A model generated the notes under the pieces. That model was not told where the DNA came from and did no database searches. It saw only the letters and a list, made by a program, of their open reading frames with translations. Positions 44,697 to 52,589 of a DNA stretch of 64,000 bases are shown here, in pieces (position 1 is the stretch's first letter; every line of letters begins with the position of its first letter). The translations under genes and the position numbers were made by a program. Source of the DNA: Escherichia coli (GTDB taxonomy: Bacteria; Pseudomonadota; Gammaproteobacteria; Enterobacterales; Enterobacteriaceae); assembly GCF_050920415.1 (NCBI RefSeq), contig NZ_CP169309.1, one strand, 5' to 3'.

Positions 44697-45329
44697 ATGG
44701 ATCCCTTGCACGCCGTTTACCTGACCGTAGGACTGTTCGTGATGACTTTTTTTAATCCGGGAGCCAATCTTTTTGTGGTGGTACAAACCAGCCTGGCTTC
44801 CGGTCGACGCGCAGGAGTGCTGACCGGGTTGGGCGTGGCACTGGGCGATGCGTTTTATTCCGGGTTGGGTTTGTATGGTCTTGCGACACTCATTACGCAG
44901 TGTGAGGAGATTTTTTCGCTTATTAGAATCGTCGGCGGCGCTTATCTCTTATGGTTTGCGTGGTGCAGCATGCGCCGCCAGTCAACACCGCAAATAAGCA
45001 CACTACAACAACCGATTAGCGCCCCCTGGTATGTCTTTTTTCGCCGTGGATTAATTACCGATCTCTCTAATCCACAGACCGTTTTATTTTTTATCAGTAT
45101 TTTCTCAGTAACGTTAAATGCTGAAACACCAACTTGGGCACGTTTAATGGCCTGGGCGGGAATTGTGTTCGCATCAATTATCTGGCGAGTCTTTCTTAGT
45201 CAGGCGTTTTCTTTGCCCGCTGTGCGTCGTGCTTATGGGCGTATGCAACGCGTTGCCAGTCGGGTTATTGGTGCAATTATTGGTGTATTCGCGCTACGCC
45301 TGATTTACGAAGGAGTAACGCAGCGGTGA
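44697..45329 (+). CDS. yahN: LysE/RhtB-family amino acid exporter
   Basis: 210 aa, 6-TM LysE-type protein matching YahN; upstream ATGs at 44659/44662 are in a different frame here. Confidence 0.88.
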   Translation: MDPLHAVYLTVGLFVMTFFNPGANLFVVVQTSLASGRRAGVLTGLGVALGDAFYSGLGLYGLATLITQCEEIFSLIRIVGGAYLLWFAWCSMRRQSTPQISTLQQPISAPWYVFFRRGLITDLSNPQTVLFFISIFSVTLNAETPTWARLMAWAGIVFASIIWRVFLSQAFSLPAVRRAYGRMQRVASRVIGAIIGVFALRLIYEGVTQR

Positions 45330-45555
45330 GCAGATAATTTACTCTCTACGTAATCAACCTGATTTGCCGAATCCCGCTCATCGGCGATGATATCCCCCGT
45401 AATGCGTGGTCCTTATTTCCGATAAGTTTACTTGAGTCTTTAGCTTCCCATTTCAGCCCACTCTCCCCTGTGTGGGCTTTTTTCATTTGTCTGCTTCAGT
45501 GAGTAGCTGGCAATGCTCCATCCACTCTGCAAGGATGATAATAAGAGGATCTGAT

Positions 45556-45738
45556 TCAGAAGAGTTTTGAAAAATTGGACCGCCATCGAGGCCTCGAACC
45601 CCGTACCATACAACAATCCTGGTTGTCGTCTGCTCTTCCTGATGAGCTAATGGCGGTTTGTGATATGAGCCTTACAGCATATTGTCTGTCAGGCTTGAGT
45701 GCGATGCGTAAGATACAGAAAAGACCCCACACAAACAT
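45556..45738 (-). CDS. Small hypothetical protein (positionally equivalent to yahM)
   Basis: 60-codon ORF in an AT-rich gap between yahN and yahL; no recognisable domain; start uncertain. Confidence 0.25.
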   Translation of the reverse strand: MFVWGLFCILRIALKPDRQYAVRLISQTAISSSGRADDNQDCCMVRGSRPRWRSNFSKLF

Positions 45739-45958
45739 GATGGAATTATGAATTTTTTCATATGAATGTCAACCAACACATTCATAAAACATTCGCACAA
45801 GTTCACTTTTTAAGCAACATGACGCCGATCACAACAAAATATCGGCGAAAAAGGAGGGTAAATGCCATTTGACGTAGAGATAAGCAGATGAAATGATTAC
45901 CCGCTTTGCGATTCACTCTCTGATGGAATAACAAATTGGAGAGGGAAAAGTTTCTAAA

Positions 45959-46774
45959 CTAAAGAGTGTAGCGTATTTTAACGTGCTTATTTACAGGATA
46001 ATATTTGTCACCTAATTCCTGCACTCTATTAGATACCCATTGATTTAATCGTGCATCATCTCTGTATGTTTTCACGTTCAGAACGGAGAGCAATAACATC
46101 ACTAGCGATTCAGGAAAAACAGGGTAAAAATTTTTTAAGTGCAATAATAATTCATACGCAAGCGCCTGCTTAATAGGTGCGTCTGCGTCCGGAATGCGCG
46201 ACATTTCGCGAAGCCATTTTTCTACATGCTCACATTCTTTCCCTTCACGGAAAAGTCTCAACAAAGGCATATGGTGCTCAAGAAGAATGCATTTGCAATC
46301 TGTTCGTACTGAATCGATAAACTGCACTAATTTCTTAAGTCCGGTGAAGCGTCCGGCATGGATATTCTCTTTAATATCAAGAAACACGTCATCCTGATCA
46401 TATACCCAAACGGTCCCTTTTTGATTTTCAAGTATCCGAAAAACAAACTTAATCGGGTAATCAGGGTAATCCACCCAGTCATAAACTCCAGGGAAATCAT
46501 TAAACTGCACATTTATGGTAAGCGCATTGTCGGCTGCCCACTCGCAATCTCGTACGGCAGCCATGAGATAAATGAGTTTATCATCATCGACTAAATCATC
46601 ACGACAATCATAAGGATAATCATAGTATTGTTTAATCAAAACCTTGAATATATCGACACAAGAAACCAGTGTACTTCTGATATCTTCAGGTAACTGATTG
46701 TTTTTAACCGTATTGTGTACGCTTTGTTTCGTATATAGCAACAAATTATTGTGCGGCGCTTTTAATGATATCAT
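45959..46774 (-). CDS. yahL: Uncharacterized protein YahL
   Basis: 271 aa ORF matching YahL length and sequence as recalled; AT-rich codon usage. Confidence 0.85.
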   Translation of the reverse strand: MISLKAPHNNLLLYTKQSVHNTVKNNQLPEDIRSTLVSCVDIFKVLIKQYYDYPYDCRDDLVDDDKLIYLMAAVRDCEWAADNALTINVQFNDFPGVYDWVDYPDYPIKFVFRILENQKGTVWVYDQDDVFLDIKENIHAGRFTGLKKLVQFIDSVRTDCKCILLEHHMPLLRLFREGKECEHVEKWLREMSRIPDADAPIKQALAYELLLHLKNFYPVFPESLVMLLLSVLNVKTYRDDARLNQWVSNRVQELGDKYYPVNKHVKIRYTL

Positions 46775-47016
46775 TGCGATCTCTCTTAAATAAAAATAAA
46801 CGTCGCAGATAATAAAGCCCTGATTAAACCAGGCACTATCAGAAATCGCTCATAACTAATATATGCAGCATTGTGTACTGGAGGGAATTAATTTAACAAT
46901 TTGAATTTACGTTATAGATTTTACTGCTACTTAGATAGTATTTCGCCCTTCTTAACTAAAAAGTTAAGTGGAGGGCGAAATTAATATGTTAAATCATAGA
47001 GCATTTATTAATTTTT

Positions 47017-48066
47017 TCAGTCTGTTAGTGTGCGATTATCGATAACAAAACGATATTTCACATCACCACGTAGCATTCGCTCATAGGCTTCATTAATTTG
47101 ATCGGCCCGAATCATCTCTATATCAGCCACGATGCCATGTTCGGCGCAAAAATCGAGCATCTCCTGTGTTTCTGGAATGCCGCCAATCATAGAGCCGGCT
47201 ATCGCGCGGCGTTTCATGATCAGGTTGAAAACTTCCGGCGATTTATGCGGTGTCGCAGGCGCACCAACCAGCGTCATGGTGCCATCGCGCTTCAGCAAGG
47301 TGGTAAAATCGTCGAGATTATGTGGCGCAGCTACGGTATTCAAAATGAAATCGAAACTCTTCAGATGAGCCGCCATCTCATCGGCATTGCGTGAGTTAAC
47401 AACTTCATCGGCCCCCAGGGCTTTTGCCGCTTCGCGTTTTGACTCAGAAGTGGTAAATGCCACCACATGTGCCCCCATCGCGTGGGCCAGCTTAATCCCC
47501 ATATGTCCCAGACCGCCGATGCCAACCACGCCCACTTTTTTACCCGGCCCGGCCTGCCAGTGACGTAGCGGCGAGTATGTGGTGATCCCTGCACACAACA
47601 AAGGAGCCACCGCCGCCAGCTGCGCTTGCGGGTGACGAATACGCAGAACATATCGCTCATGAACGACGATCTGTTGTGAGTAGCCGCCCAGCGTATGGCC
47701 CGGTTCGTCCGGCGTCGGCGAGTTATAGGTGCCGGTCATGTGATCACAGTAGTTTTCCAGCCCATCTTCACACTCTTCGCAATGTTTACAACTGTCGACA
47801 ATGCAGCCGACACCGACCAGATCGCCCGGCGCATATTTTTCTACCTGATCACCAACGGCTACCACGCGCCCTACAATTTCATGGCCCGGCACGCAGGGAT
47901 AAACCGTCCCCGCCCACTCGGAACGCACCTGGTGGATATCGGAATGGCACACGCCACAGTAAGCGATTTCAATTTTGACATCATGCGGTCCCGGTTCACG
48001 CCGGGTGATATCCATCGGTTCAAGTGGTTGTTTAGCGGAATATGCACCAACAGCTTTGATCTTCAT
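47017..48066 (-). CDS. yahK: NADPH-dependent aldehyde reductase (zinc-type ADH)
   Basis: 349 aa; GHEIVG zinc ligand motif and GIGGLG Rossmann motif; matches YahK. Confidence 0.95.
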   Translation of the reverse strand: MKIKAVGAYSAKQPLEPMDITRREPGPHDVKIEIAYCGVCHSDIHQVRSEWAGTVYPCVPGHEIVGRVVAVGDQVEKYAPGDLVGVGCIVDSCKHCEECEDGLENYCDHMTGTYNSPTPDEPGHTLGGYSQQIVVHERYVLRIRHPQAQLAAVAPLLCAGITTYSPLRHWQAGPGKKVGVVGIGGLGHMGIKLAHAMGAHVVAFTTSESKREAAKALGADEVVNSRNADEMAAHLKSFDFILNTVAAPHNLDDFTTLLKRDGTMTLVGAPATPHKSPEVFNLIMKRRAIAGSMIGGIPETQEMLDFCAEHGIVADIEMIRADQINEAYERMLRGDVKYRFVIDNRTLTD

Positions 48067-48152: not shown

Positions 48153-49109
48153 TTAAACCACCCGATCCAGCCCCAACATGCCGCGAGCCTGAATGAAACA
48201 GAGCAGCAACGTTCCCCATAAGGCCATCGTCAGGTAGGGGCTTATCCCGAGAATATTGAAGCCGCTTTCAATAATTTGCAGAAGAAACAGCGCCAGCACC
48301 ATACCAATTATCCGCCCGCTGCCGCCGTCCGGATTAACCCCGCCGAGTACTGCCGCGAGGATTGACACCAGCAAGTACGATTCGCCATAAGAGGCCTTAG
48401 CCGAGTTGAGTTTCGACATCATCAAAAATGCCGCTACCGCACAAAGCAAGGCGGAAATGACATACACCCATATCAGCACCCGACGCGTGTTAATACCGGA
48501 GTAAAGTGTTGCTCGTTCATTAGAACCAATCAGATAAATGGATTTACCGAGCGGTGTTTTCTCCAGCAATATCCACAACCCCAGCGCCACTGCGGTAAAC
48601 AACCACATCGGTAGCGGAATACCGAACCACTGTGCATGATTCAACCACAGCACCCATGAGGGATAATTAGCAATGGCGCTACCGCCTGTCACCAGAATAT
48701 TTACTCCTTTGAGCAACGTCATCATCCCAAGCGTTGCAAGAATTGGCGACACTCGAATACCGGCAATCAATACGCCATTACATAAACCAATTATCACCGC
48801 CGCGCCAGCGCCCGCCAGCAGCGTAGCGACAACCGTAGCAATACCCGGTGGATACTGAGTCGCCACCCACGCCATCACCAGTGAACAGGCGTTAGCAGTG
48901 GCAATAATTGACAAGTTAATGCCACCGCAAAGCATGGTCACCGCCATAGCCAACGCCAGAATGCCCAGCACGGGCATTTGCGAAGCGACGGACTGGAAAT
49001 TACTTATCGACCAGAAAATCTCCGGCATAGTAATGCTGAAGGCGGCAACAGTTAGCACCAGCAGGCCGATCAAGTAAAACTCAACGTTATTACGCCACGA
49101 TTTTTTCAT
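48153..49109 (-). CDS. Carbohydrate ABC transporter permease (CUT2/RbsC-like), second of two
   Basis: About 318 aa multi-TM protein; start ATG 49109 overlaps the upstream permease stop (ATGA); accessory relative to K-12. Confidence 0.85.
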   Translation of the reverse strand: MKKSWRNNVEFYLIGLLVLTVAAFSITMPEIFWSISNFQSVASQMPVLGILALAMAVTMLCGGINLSIIATANACSLVMAWVATQYPPGIATVVATLLAGAGAAVIIGLCNGVLIAGIRVSPILATLGMMTLLKGVNILVTGGSAIANYPSWVLWLNHAQWFGIPLPMWLFTAVALGLWILLEKTPLGKSIYLIGSNERATLYSGINTRRVLIWVYVISALLCAVAAFLMMSKLNSAKASYGESYLLVSILAAVLGGVNPDGGSGRIIGMVLALFLLQIIESGFNILGISPYLTMALWGTLLLCFIQARGMLGLDRVV

Positions 49110-50077
49110 AGCAGACTCCGGTTCTGATGCTGACTCCACGCCGTGGCGCTAATGCTGGCAACGATGATGATGCCTGTGATCAATGTTTGCCAGTAAGACG
49201 AGACTCCCAATAAATTTAGCCCGTTTTGCATCACTGCCAACAACACCACGCCGAGCAAAGTACCGGTTAACGTGCCGCGCCCGCCGAGCAAACTAGTGCC
49301 GCCAAGCACCACCGCAGCCAGTACTGTCAGCTCATAACCCAGAAGAGAATCGGGGGCGACAGTCATCACCGTCCACGACTGCACTACACCCGCAGCACCA
49401 GACATCAATCCCATATAGCCGTAAACGAAAAGTTGCAGTTTCAGCACGCTAAAGCCGATGCGACTGGCTGATTCACGGTTCCCACCAAGGGCATAGATTT
49501 TGCGCCCCACACTGGTGAAATTCATGATAAATGCTGTTAGCAGCACCACCGTAATCATGGCGATCAGCGGCAGACCAAGGCCATAGTCATAGCCGTCAGC
49601 ATCGGTGTACTTGAACAACATTACCCCCTGCTCAAACCACGGCGGAAAGTCGTACAGCCACACACCTTTACTCAACCATAACAGCAGGCCATAGAAAATA
49701 TTCAGCGTCGAAATGGTGATGATGATAGAAGGCACCCGTAGGCGATTAACCAGTAAGGCGTTTATTAAGCCAAGTAAAATGCCGATGCCGCCCGCCAGGG
49801 CAAACGCGACAGCAAAGTTGCCACCCATTTTTTGTAGCAACAGCACCATGCCGTATTGCGCAATGATGGTCATTGCTGGAAACGAAATATCAATTCCACC
49901 GGAAATTAACACCACAAACAAACCACAGGCGAGAATAGTCAACATGGCATAGTTATTGGCGAGATCGTACAAATTACCGAATGTCAGAAACTCGTCGCTG
50001 CGCCAGGCAAGGCCGACAAACAGCCCCACAATCAGTAATGCCAGCCAGAATTCATGACGTTTTTTCAGTTCAGCCAT
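49106..50077 (-). CDS. Carbohydrate ABC transporter permease (CUT2/RbsC-like), first of two
   Basis: 323 aa multi-TM protein; overlaps the ATPase stop by 8 nt. Confidence 0.85.
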   Translation of the reverse strand: MAELKKRHEFWLALLIVGLFVGLAWRSDEFLTFGNLYDLANNYAMLTILACGLFVVLISGGIDISFPAMTIIAQYGMVLLLQKMGGNFAVAFALAGGIGILLGLINALLVNRLRVPSIIITISTLNIFYGLLLWLSKGVWLYDFPPWFEQGVMLFKYTDADGYDYGLGLPLIAMITVVLLTAFIMNFTSVGRKIYALGGNRESASRIGFSVLKLQLFVYGYMGLMSGAAGVVQSWTVMTVAPDSLLGYELTVLAAVVLGGTSLLGGRGTLTGTLLGVVLLAVMQNGLNLLGVSSYWQTLITGIIIVASISATAWSQHQNRSLL

Positions 50078-51554
50078 TTACCACCTCCGCAATCCTGGCC
50101 TGAGAACTGCTGTCAGGCAGGAAGCTATGGGTGATCTGACCTTTTTGCATTACCAAAATCCGGTGGCTTTGATACCACGCTTCTTCAATTTCATCGCAGA
50201 TCATCAATACCGCAATGCCATGAGCCGCCAGATCGCTGATAATGCCGTATATTCCTGCTTTGTTGGCGATATCAACACCGACAGTCGGGCTATCGAGAAT
50301 CAACAGTCGTGGCCCAATCGCCAGCCATTTGGCGATCGATACTCGCTGCGCGTTACCCCCGGAAAGCGTATTCACCGGGAGATGTGGGTCAGAGACTTTG
50401 ATGGTCAATGCCTTAATTAGCCTATCCACCAGGTCACGCACTTTAGCTTCACTCAGAAAGCCGAAGCGATCTTTTACCTTGTGAAAAACAGTGCTAATGA
50501 TGTTGTCTTCAATAGATTGCGCCATCACCAAACCGCGCGACATGCGATCTTCCGAAACATAACCAATACCGTGGCGGATGGCGTCCTGGTTACTATGCAG
50601 TGTTACCGGCTGACCGTTGATGAGGATCTCACCAGCATCCGGTCGGGTCATACCAAACAGACTCAGACATAATTCCGTGCGCCCCGCACCAAGCAGGCCA
50701 ACAATCGACACCACTTCGCCCGCTTCCACCCGCAAGTTAATATTTTGATATTCCCCATGACGACTTAAATTACGCACCTCCAGCACTGGGGTGCTGGATT
50801 TTCCCTGCCACAACTCTCGCACCTGATATTCAAACTCCTGGCCGGTCATCAGGAAACCGAGTTGTTTTGTGGTCATCTCTGCAGCCGGAAAGGTCCCGAC
50901 CAGCTCACCATCTTTCAACACTGAAATACGGTCGGAAACTTCCATCACCTCTTCCAGACGATGACTGACGAAGACCACGCAAATCCCGCGTTCCCGCAAT
51001 TGATGCACCACCTGCAATAACCCTTGCACTTCCTGATGGGTCAGCGAAGCGGTTGGTTCATCCATCACGATCAACCGTGCGTCCTGCGCCAGTGCACGGC
51101 AAATTGCCACCAGCTGACAGCGGGCAATTGAAAGCTCAGAAACGAGCGTATCCAGTGGCAATGTGACGTTAATACTGGTCATTGCCGCCTGCGCCACCTC
51201 ACGCAGACGACGTCGGTTAACAAACAGACCGTGGTGATAGTGATTCACGGCGATATTCTCCCAGACACTCAGGTTAGGAAATAAAGAGAGGTCCTGATAA
51301 ATCACCTGAATCCCCTGCGCCACCGAAGCGGCGGGTGTCAGCTTTGACCAGTTTTTCCCACCAAGCGTAATTTCCGCCCCCTCATCCGGGCGATAAACAC
51401 CGGACATAATTTTAATCAACGTCGATTTACCACAGCCGTTTTGCCCGGCAAGGCAGTGCACCTCACCCGACATAAAGTCGAGAGAAACATCGCGCAGCGC
51501 TCGCGTGGCATGAAACGTTTTGTTGATATGACGAAGGGAAAGGAAGGTTTCCAT
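50070..51554 (-). CDS. Carbohydrate ABC transporter ATP-binding protein with tandem nucleotide-binding domains (RbsA/LsrA-like)
   Basis: About 494 aa from ATG 51554 with AGGGGA upstream; two NBDs (Walker A GQNGCGKST; signature LSGGNAQRV in the second domain). Confidence 0.88.
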   Translation of the reverse strand: METFLSLRHINKTFHATRALRDVSLDFMSGEVHCLAGQNGCGKSTLIKIMSGVYRPDEGAEITLGGKNWSKLTPAASVAQGIQVIYQDLSLFPNLSVWENIAVNHYHHGLFVNRRRLREVAQAAMTSINVTLPLDTLVSELSIARCQLVAICRALAQDARLIVMDEPTASLTHQEVQGLLQVVHQLRERGICVVFVSHRLEEVMEVSDRISVLKDGELVGTFPAAEMTTKQLGFLMTGQEFEYQVRELWQGKSSTPVLEVRNLSRHGEYQNINLRVEAGEVVSIVGLLGAGRTELCLSLFGMTRPDAGEILINGQPVTLHSNQDAIRHGIGYVSEDRMSRGLVMAQSIEDNIISTVFHKVKDRFGFLSEAKVRDLVDRLIKALTIKVSDPHLPVNTLSGGNAQRVSIAKWLAIGPRLLILDSPTVGVDIANKAGIYGIISDLAAHGIAVLMICDEIEEAWYQSHRILVMQKGQITHSFLPDSSSQARIAEVVNG

Positions 51555-51567
51555 AGCATCCCCTGGC

Positions 51568-51592
51568 AATAAGAATCGGGGCTTTCGCCCCG
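51568..51592 (-). terminator. Intra-operon hairpin between binding-protein and ATPase genes (possible partial terminator)
   Basis: CGGGGC-GAAA-GCCCCG stem-loop on the transcribed strand followed by AUUCUUAUU. Confidence 0.4.
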
Positions 51593-51602
51593 AAGAAATG
51601 GA

Positions 51603-52589
51603 TTAATAAAGTGAGTCAATATTGTCTTTGTTGACCAGTAATACCTTATGGAAACGGATAATTCGCTTATCCATATCTACGTCGGCCTTACCGAGATTCT
51701 CCATTTCTAATCCAGGTTTGATCTCTTCACCCTTCAGCAACGTGCTGGCGACGGCCGCGAGTGCGTAACCTGCAGAGGCCGGATCGTAAGTAATCCCTTC
51801 GGTGATATCACCACTTTTAATCAGTGATGCCGCCTGTGAAGGGATCATCATGCCATAGACTGCGACTTTATTTTTCGCCCGTTTCTCTTTCACTGCACGT
51901 CCCGCGCCAATCGGACCGTTTGAACCAAAGGAGACAACCGCTTTCAAGTCAGGATAGGTTTTCATCAGGTCCAGTGTGGTACGACGTGAGTCATCCACAC
52001 TCTCGGCAACCGGCATGCGGCGGGTAACTTCATGCATATCCGGGTAATGCTCTTTCTGGTATTTCACCAGCAAGTCAGCCCATAAGTTATGCTGCGGCAC
52101 GGTCAAACTACCCACGTAAATCACGTAGCCGCCCTTGCCACCCATGCGTTTCGCCATATGTTCAACATATTCAGCGGCAAATTTTTCGTTATCAATGATT
52201 TCGATATCCCAGTTAGCACTTGGCTGACCGGGGGATTCGTTGGTCAGAACCACAATTCCGGCATCTCGCGCTTTTTTGAATACCGGTTCCAGCACGTTGG
52301 CATCGTTTGGCACAATTGTAATTGCATTAACCTTACGGGCGATTAAATCCTCAATGATTTTAACCTGTTGCGGTGCATCAGTACTTGAAGGCCCCACCTG
52401 TGACGCATTAACACCAAAGGCTTTACCCGCCTCGACCACACCTTCGCCCATGCGATTAAACCACGGCATACCATCGACTTTAGAGATATTCACCACGACT
52501 TTTTCCGCGGCCTGGAGCGGCGCAGAAATTAGCGCAGCGCCTAATAACAGCGAAGACACCATATTGATAACAAAACGTTTATTCATCAT
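51603..52589 (-). CDS. Periplasmic sugar-binding protein, LsrB/RhaS-like (type I PBP)
   Basis: 328 aa with signal peptide MMNKRFVINMVSSLLLGAALISAPLQA; C-terminal NKDNIDSLY resembles the LsrB C-terminus; GAGG SD upstream. Confidence 0.85.
   Translation of the reverse strand: MMNKRFVINMVSSLLLGAALISAPLQAAEKVVVNISKVDGMPWFNRMGEGVVEAGKAFGVNASQVGPSSTDAPQQVKIIEDLIARKVNAITIVPNDANVLEPVFKKARDAGIVVLTNESPGQPSANWDIEIIDNEKFAAEYVEHMAKRMGGKGGYVIYVGSLTVPQHNLWADLLVKYQKEHYPDMHEVTRRMPVAESVDDSRRTTLDLMKTYPDLKAVVSFGSNGPIGAGRAVKEKRAKNKVAVYGMMIPSQAASLIKSGDITEGITYDPASAGYALAAVASTLLKGEEIKPGLEMENLGKADVDMDKRIIRFHKVLLVNKDNIDSLY

Follow-up and report, generated by a model that had tools for sequence, protein, structure and literature searches.

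Both components of the locus described here are already in the literature. yahL is known as a signature gene of E. coli and Shigella, its product having been published as a "conserved signature protein" specific to these two (PMC11057252). xtpA was published in 2022 (Muto et al., cited in RegulonDB v12) as an mRNA that is leaderless and includes a tRNA-like sequence; according to the title of that paper, XtpA affects expression of the GcvB sRNA. For the promoter of the same locus, referred to as the yahM promoter, a Reg-Seq preprint reports a transcription start and repression by IHF, and published data include a "yahM" signal in a small-RNA fraction.

We analysed a window of 64,000 nucleotides of E. 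coli DNA (contig NZ_CP169309.1), in which the two genes lie side by side in an AT-rich block (45330-47016). When set against published xtpA, this is the same locus, with the same ORF, the same promoter-to-ATG arrangement and the same tRNA-like sequence, and we found no structural difference between them. yahL has a slightly wider range than its published status implies, as one divergent Escherichia lineage outside E. coli carries it as well. The AT-rich stretch does exist, but is nothing out of the ordinary. The explanation that we favour, with good confidence, is that it consists of two unrelated pieces lying at one synteny breakpoint, namely an old, acquired yahL and a separate xtpA locus derived from a phage tRNA.

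Composition, layout and neighbourhood of the block

The GC content of the block is 38.9%, compared to 52.4% for the whole window, and a sliding-GC analysis of the whole window showed that just 0.24% of windows of the same length are as AT-rich. The sliding minimum (0.386, start at 45401) lies inside the block, and no same-length stretch is meaningfully lower. The preliminary description, which had called the yahL region visibly AT-rich, was therefore right on this point. It had also presented yahN as a GC-rich flank, which the calculated value for that gene (0.498) does not bear out. Neither is the AT-richness uniform, since the tRNA-like piece has a GC content of 0.548. The block is 100% identical to that of E. 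coli strain MFDS1022581, and the window is in reverse orientation relative to K-12. Its gene order is prpR (+), yahO (-), yahN (+), the yahM pseudogene (-), xtpA with the tRNA-like sequence (-), yahL (-), yahK (-) and then an ABC transporter, which stands beyond yahK in place of the yahJ of K-12. The features are as follows.

44697-45329, plus strand: yahN
45330-45487, plus strand: 3' untranslated region of yahN, ending in an intrinsic terminator
45346-45586, minus strand: yahM, frameshifted in this strain
45556-45738, minus strand: xtpA, a 60-codon leaderless ORF running through a leader and the tRNA-like sequence
45576-45656, minus strand: tRNA-like sequence, 81 nt including the encoded CCA, called by ARAGORN
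45745-45772, minus strand: xtpA/yahM promoter, near-consensus sigma-70 (TTGACA, 16 nt, CATAAT)
45773-45958: fast-evolving AT-rich spacer with indels, separating the stop codon of yahL from the promoter of xtpA
45959-46774, minus strand: yahL, AT-rich gene for a 271-aa orphan protein, under purifying selection
46775-47016: yahK-yahL intergenic region, the most AT-rich piece (GC 0.306)
47017-48066, minus strand: yahK

In the intergenic region between yahK and yahL, a long hairpin (46942-46979) closely follows yahK, and the ribosome-binding region of yahL lies there as well. The spacer on the other side of yahL has a GC content of 0.383 (45776-45958); between lineages, its identity falls to 35-67% (45779-45958), with indels of 40 nt and roughly 120 nt.

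E. albertii, Escherichia sp. L031, Citrobacter and S. bongori all share the order prpR-yahO-yahN. At the syntenic site downstream of yahN, yahL is absent from all four of them, and what follows yahN is different in each.

E. albertii: yahJ
Escherichia sp. L031: Zorya type I system (ZorC and ZorD, by PADLOC)
Citrobacter: a DosC-like gene
S. bongori: cytochrome bd-like genes

Such different cargo in each relative indicates that the site is a replacement hotspot and that yahL is one of its cargoes. The tRNA-like sequence and its promoter, on the other hand, adjoin yahN in E. albertii and Escherichia sp. L031 too; beside yahN in Citrobacter and Salmonella they are absent.

Constraint, age and origin of yahL

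In base composition, yahL is the extreme case of the window. Of the 49 long ORFs compared (non-overlapping, 150 codons or more), none is lower than yahL in GC content (0.385; mean 0.524, sd 0.042) or in GC3 (0.375; mean 0.571, sd 0.070), and none lies farther from the pooled genes in codon usage (distance 0.478; mean 0.286, sd 0.070). On calculation, yahL is thus unlike the other long ORFs, in keeping with the preliminary description, and no clear homology to a housekeeping family appeared. It was equally correct in crediting the 271-aa protein with no recognisable domain: YahL has no match in Pfam, NCBIfam, PHROG or PADLOC. Structure prediction gives a weak fold (mean pLDDT 59) with an ordered alpha/beta architecture. 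No known fold matched it. As part of the explanation that we favour, YahL is by prediction a soluble, acidic alpha/beta protein, and it has no detectable relatives.

Pairwise dN/dS values of 0.16-0.20 and a lack of indels show that yahL is a real protein-coding gene under constraint. Its age can be judged from the divergent lineage "E. coli" SCPM-O-B-8794 (hereafter the SCPM lineage), to which the dS of yahL (about 0.63) is close to that of the flanking genes yahK (0.65) and yahN (0.60). yahL therefore predates the split of this lineage and has passed down vertically from then on.

No homologue of YahL from beyond Escherichia came up among 5.8 billion clusters and 1.84 billion representatives. 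The searches returned alleles and fragments of YahL from Escherichia, a chimera, an assembly with a frameshift and a single genuinely distant relative. The frameshifted yahL assembly and the chimera account for two candidate distant homologues, P0010 and P0009, which were rejected. The sole true distant relative (P0024) is 26% identical, comes from an E. coli genome and lies in a different island; it is absent from all 5,426 complete E. coli genomes. It adjoins genes for an inverse autotransporter and a type III chaperone/translocator, and this hint at secretion is too weak to be used. A scan covering 100,044 species, each by one genome, found yahL at two loci only, both of them Escherichia-like.

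Within E. coli, at least 80% of the block is present in 4011 of the 5426 complete genomes, about 1165 have only a part of it and 250 have none. The one partial genome that we examined, that of strain MS20655, has an 835-bp deletion (window positions 46787-45953) which removes just the yahL ORF. Given this clean deletion, and a partial block in about a fifth of complete genomes, yahL is dispensable. A tblastn search with YahL also matched 13 "plasmid" records, some of them up to 4.9 Mb. We did not take this to mean that yahL is a plasmid gene, as the larger records are chromosome-sized and the smaller ones, judging by their annotation, appear to be of the F-prime type and to contain this chromosomal region.

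Expression of YahL in K-12 is below 1 ppm according to published data. An exact copy of the H-NS high-affinity 10-mer, TCGATATATT, lies inside yahL at 46647-46656; this single exact match is anecdotal, and with one mismatch allowed the window contains five copies of the 10-mer, which is not above chance. The near-silence of yahL in laboratory K-12 would most likely be due to coating by H-NS. In its low GC content, deviant codon usage, taxon restriction, near-silence and high-affinity H-NS motif, yahL resembles the H-NS-silenced xenogeneic orphan genes of E. coli.

The preliminary description had taken the whole block for an older, horizontally acquired segment. For yahL this is supported by foreign composition, restriction to Escherichia, syntenic absence from the relatives and the age given by dS; as a single segment, the block does not hold together. 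Cargo of a replacement hotspot that is also foreign in composition argues for an older horizontal acquisition of yahL. Compared with typical genomic islets, yahL has the deviant composition and the restricted distribution with syntenic absence, and lacks the mobility signatures: near it we found no meaningful flanking repeats, no mobility genes and no att site. No donor was found either, so it is composition and distribution that point to a horizontal origin. The tRNA-like sequence was considered as an island att site and rejected, because the variable DNA lies on its 5' (promoter) side and there are no repeats. In the scenario that we propose, yahL of foreign composition, together with its AT-rich flanks (about 45773-47016), would have entered an Escherichia ancestor; since then it would have been inherited vertically under moderate purifying selection, while remaining dispensable.

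It may seem plausible to assume instead that yahL was born de novo in Escherichia, out of intergenic DNA rich in AT, and that its composition reflects this origin and low expression. The lack of homologues other than one E. coli paralogue would fit this idea, as would the very low expression, the weak fold prediction (mean pLDDT 59) and the fact that no donor or mobility signature was found. However, 271 codons kept free of indels across a dS of 0.6, at a dN/dS of 0.17, are those of an old and constrained gene, a paralogue at 26% identity in a different island makes the family older than E. coli, and an ordered alpha/beta architecture, such as the one predicted, is unusual in a young de novo gene. 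Taken together, we consider a de novo birth unlikely, and acquisition remains the preferred reading.

The suggestion that blocks of this kind sometimes encode defence or toxin functions gained no support in the case of yahL, and an unrecognised single-gene function of this sort seems very improbable. It is true that yahL is an AT-rich, variable accessory gene, and that Escherichia sp. L031 has a Zorya type I system (ZorC, ZorD) in the same slot, so the site does accept defence cargo. Nevertheless, YahL gives no match in PADLOC, no domain or fold of a nuclease, NTPase or toxin-like type turned up in it, and a partner (antitoxin) gene is absent. Moreover, typical defence genes are patchy, while yahL is inherited vertically at one fixed locus in about three quarters of E. 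coli.

The xtpA locus and its kinship to phage argN

The preliminary description had placed a 60-codon ORF in non-coding AT-rich DNA. The ORF lies where it was said to lie, and it is the published gene xtpA. The K-12 record annotates the equivalent ORF as xtpA (b4845), and the XtpA peptide of the window is identical to that of K-12 at 58 of 60 positions, with K19Q and K27Q as the differences. With the K-12 record showing xtpA and RegulonDB v12 citing the 2022 paper, we dropped the idea that the tRNA-like sequence is an undescribed element.

The xtpA promoter agrees with the consensus at 11 of 12 positions and is the best match in the region; it is kept in every Escherichia lineage examined. 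In the predicted start arrangement, the CATAAT -10 element ends 6 nt upstream of the xtpA ATG. The 60-codon ORF thus runs through the tRNA-like sequence with its ATG at what is, by prediction from the sequence, the transcription start. A 16-nt inverted repeat between the 5' end of xtpA and the yahN terminator is, by a rough estimate, at about chance level.

On the other side of the tRNA-like sequence lies yahM, which is doubtful as a protein-coding gene. Its ATG is placed inside the acceptor stem of the tRNA-like sequence and its ORF crosses the yahN terminator, a hairpin (GCCCAC...GTGGGC) followed by TTTTTT at 45456-45483. RefSeq marks yahM as "frameshifted" in the identical strain. Frame-breaking indels occur both here and in the SCPM lineage, with the 5' half of the gene only 65-71% identical; E. 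albertii has a rearranged version of the region, and Escherichia sp. L031 has lost it by deletion. One part of it is unusually conserved, namely the sub-block 45388-45487, which shows 96-99% identity to other E. coli and to the SCPM lineage and, judged by eye, is also well preserved in E. albertii, whose yahN coding DNA is only 85% identical. This conserved portion of "yahM" is the 3' untranslated region of yahN with its terminator. Probably, then, yahM does not encode a protein.

At minimum energy, the tRNA-like sequence folds into a cloverleaf (z = -3.3); its 7-bp acceptor stem is perfectly paired, D and T arms are present, and extra bases follow the D stem. The "anticodon" arm consists of a 7-bp stem (ACGACAA/UUGUUGU) and a 6-nt loop (CCAGGA) lacking U33. 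The Rfam tRNA model RF00005 gave no match, neither at E <= 1 in 3.5 kb nor at E <= 10 in 111 nt. In other words, the cloverleaf and the CCA of a canonical tRNA are present, and the RF00005 score, the 5-bp stem, the 7-nt loop and U33 are not. The aberrant anticodon arm indicates that the element is tRNA-like and not a decoding tRNA.

Over 83-92 nt, the tRNA-like sequence is 78-87% identical to argN and pseudo-argN of phages and phage-plasmids; the matches include phiP27, a phage-plasmid, mEp460, TL-2011c, PhiR49_2 and Yersinia YeP1. In lambdoid phages, argN is the middle tRNA of a cluster that follows Q and a methyltransferase gene. The cluster is that of lambdoid and Shiga-toxin phages such as 933W and phiP27; the name argN follows the 933W literature, and ileZ and argO are named as in the phiP27 annotation. 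The chromosomal tRNA-like sequence has an acceptor stem, D arm, T arm and CCA nearly identical to those of phage argN, and a derived segment, GGAAGAGCAGACGACA, is common to it and to degenerate phage argN copies. It differs from phage argN in having a promoter of its own and another "anticodon" arm, and it is frozen in sequence, whereas the phage copies vary and decay. Furthermore, it is solitary: homology to the argN family is evident, but location in an ileZ-argN-argO cluster is not, for neither ileZ, argO, Q nor the methyltransferase gene lies nearby and its neighbours are yahL and yahN. The argN homology is confined to about 90 nt and ends about 8 nt outside the tRNA-like sequence. A decayed ileZ upstream or argO downstream was looked for and rejected, as the alignments were no better than those of shuffled sequences (p = 0.70 and 0.20, respectively).

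Such kinship raises the possibility that the block in its entirety represents the late region of a lambdoid prophage, now decayed, with yahL as a moron left over beside the phage tRNA cluster. Homology to the argN of ileZ-argN-argO, which lies downstream of Q and the methyltransferase gene in Stx-type phages, speaks for this, and so does the derived D-arm and insertion sequence shared with the degenerate argN of phiP27. We nevertheless consider it quite unlikely. YahL has neither a PHROG match nor a tblastn match in 50,697 phage records, the flanks of the tRNA-like sequence are not significantly similar to ileZ or argO in the shuffle comparison, and the tRNA-like sequence occurs in E. albertii and Escherichia sp. 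L031 without yahL, which means that the two pieces are separable. The tRNA-like piece has a history other than that of yahL, being genus-wide and phage-derived. In keeping with the favoured reading of two unrelated pieces, the near-consensus promoter of the xtpA locus (45556-45772) would give a leaderless mRNA with a fold descended from a lambdoid argN tRNA, and in E. coli this mRNA would encode the 60-aa XtpA peptide.

RNA element and XtpA peptide

A run of 85 nt (45575-45659) is identical in five Escherichia sequences, which represent four lineages at species level: E. coli, E. albertii, Escherichia sp. L031 and the SCPM lineage. Identity of yahN among these lineages is only 85-87%, and the chance of an invariant 85-nt run at 15% divergence is about 1e-6. 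Conservation of the tRNA-like sequence stops exactly after the CCA. Among complete E. coli genomes, 5168 of 5426 have the tRNA-like sequence, and in 4781 of 5170 matching E. coli records it is at least 99% identical; one common E. coli variant (O157) has a G-C pair in place of a G-U pair in the T stem. In a covariation test on the stems, the columns hardly vary.

The xtpA ORF behaves differently. Codon 4 is a TAG stop in E. albertii, the SCPM lineage and Escherichia sp. L031; of the sequences examined, only those of E. coli have the ORF intact. Where it is interrupted, the promoter and the 82-nt spacing from the ATG to the tRNA-like sequence are nonetheless kept. Invariance of the 85 nt, combined with the stop at codon 4 outside E. 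coli, argues for selection on the RNA or the DNA, independently of the peptide; the conservation could act at the level of DNA rather than RNA. What we add here is that the tRNA-like RNA, or its DNA, may be an anciently selected unit, on which the E. coli xtpA ORF would have been overprinted through a TAG-to-TGG change at codon 4.

One may go a step further and propose that the selected unit is not XtpA, but the 85-nt tRNA mimic derived from argN. It would have been fixed beside yahN with its own strong promoter in an Escherichia ancestor, and would have stayed invariant while its surroundings diverged or were replaced (yahL-yahK, yahJ, Zorya), the ORF being overprinted in E. coli only. In our judgement, the arguments for and against this proposal are evenly balanced.

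Apart from the recognition of the small ORF as a named gene, xtpA, and of the annotated yahM as probably no gene at all, what the analysis adds is the contrast between a genus-wide invariant RNA element and an ORF that, among the sequences examined, only those of E. coli have intact. The locus itself is a replacement hotspot, and in a sister species it holds a defence system of the Zorya type. If the tRNA mimic is indeed the selected unit, xtpA would be a dual-function RNA and its published phenotypes may partly stem from the RNA. With an invariant RNA element set against an ORF intact in the examined E. coli sequences only, "peptide or RNA?" becomes a question that can be put to a direct test in the case of xtpA.

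The diverged yahL allele and relatives of yahL elsewhere

The yahL allele of this strain proved to be rare and deeply diverged. The AT-rich block that contains it (45330-47016) is matched at 95% or more by only 21 records from the 5,426 complete genomes. Between this allele and the common one, dS reaches 0.30 for yahL (45959-46774, minus strand), whereas the values for yahK and yahN are only 0.085 and 0.15. This suggests that the yahL allele was imported or that divergence is locally elevated.

Only one distant relative of YahL was found, at 26% identity:

L007 8001-8828, E. coli GCA_009799345.1: P0024, the YahL relative

The GC content of its first 500 bp is 29.8%. The island in which it lies is rare; iadA and yjiG precede P0024, and after it come a fragment of IS256, the inverse autotransporter IatC, a type III chaperone resembling SicA and a translocator resembling SseC. 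P0024 itself was present in none of the 5,426 complete genomes. In E. coli ET650 (L014 3675-6804), an IS1 insertion cuts yahL short. Next to this IS1 lie lambdoid lysis genes (holin, lysozyme, spanin-like) and a DNA methyltransferase gene, the type of phage region where argN normally sits.

Variable junctions around the block

A defence system was found in an Escherichia sp. locus:

L031 5955-10633, GCA_036173185.1: Zorya type I defence system (ZorD 1517 bits, ZorC 687 bits)

It immediately precedes the xtpA promoter, at the position that yahL-yahK hold in E. coli, and in this lineage only 43 nt are left between yahN and the tRNA-like sequence, the argN-homologous stretch within xtpA. The locus has a further variable junction upstream of yahK: this strain carries there an ABC sugar / autoinducer-2-type transporter operon (48153-52589), whereas K-12 and BL21 have yahJ-yahI at the same site. 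Extra ORFs indicate that the yahO-yahN intergenic site is variable as well. One of them, of 208 aa, is present in E. albertii (L029 4163-4789) and gave no Pfam match; another, of 878 aa, occupies L031 2231-4867, and its counterpart in L032, a related locus, is broken into pieces and matches an autotransporter faintly. Between prpR and yahO, the segment 44100-44173 is probably a REP element, judging from a below-threshold match to the REP-derived naRNA4 family (25.7 bits, E = 0.11).

The conserved 3' end of yahN

The following sequences lie at the junction of yahN and xtpA:

45388-45487: yahN 3' UTR and terminator
45469-45484 and 45718-45733: arms of a 16-nt inverted repeat, 88% complementary

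Across E. coli and the divergent Escherichia lineage with a dS of about 0.6, the first of these shows 96-99% identity, which exceeds the conservation of the yahN coding region (85%), and it is likewise well conserved in E. albertii when the alignment is judged by eye. An Rfam search of this block returned no match. It could be a small RNA derived from the 3' UTR, or a terminator common to yahN and the convergent xtpA/yahM transcript. Through the inverted repeat, the 5' end of the xtpA mRNA would base-pair with the region of the yahN terminator within a single transcript; by a rough estimate, such a repeat is about what chance would be expected to produce. The E. coli-specific codon 4 of xtpA falls in one of its arms.

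Phage argN copies and the chromosomal tRNA-like sequence

In phages (loci L005, L006, L036, L037 and L038), argN keeps its acceptor, D and T arms. The anticodon arms, however, differ strongly: TCG occurs, as do a TGG-like loop and degenerate forms. In roughly half of the degenerate copies, the T stem is broken by a base change. These variable anticodon arms and T-stem breaks give phage argN the look of a decaying or fast-changing tRNA, whereas its chromosomal counterpart in E. coli, the tRNA-like sequence (45576-45656, minus strand), is frozen.
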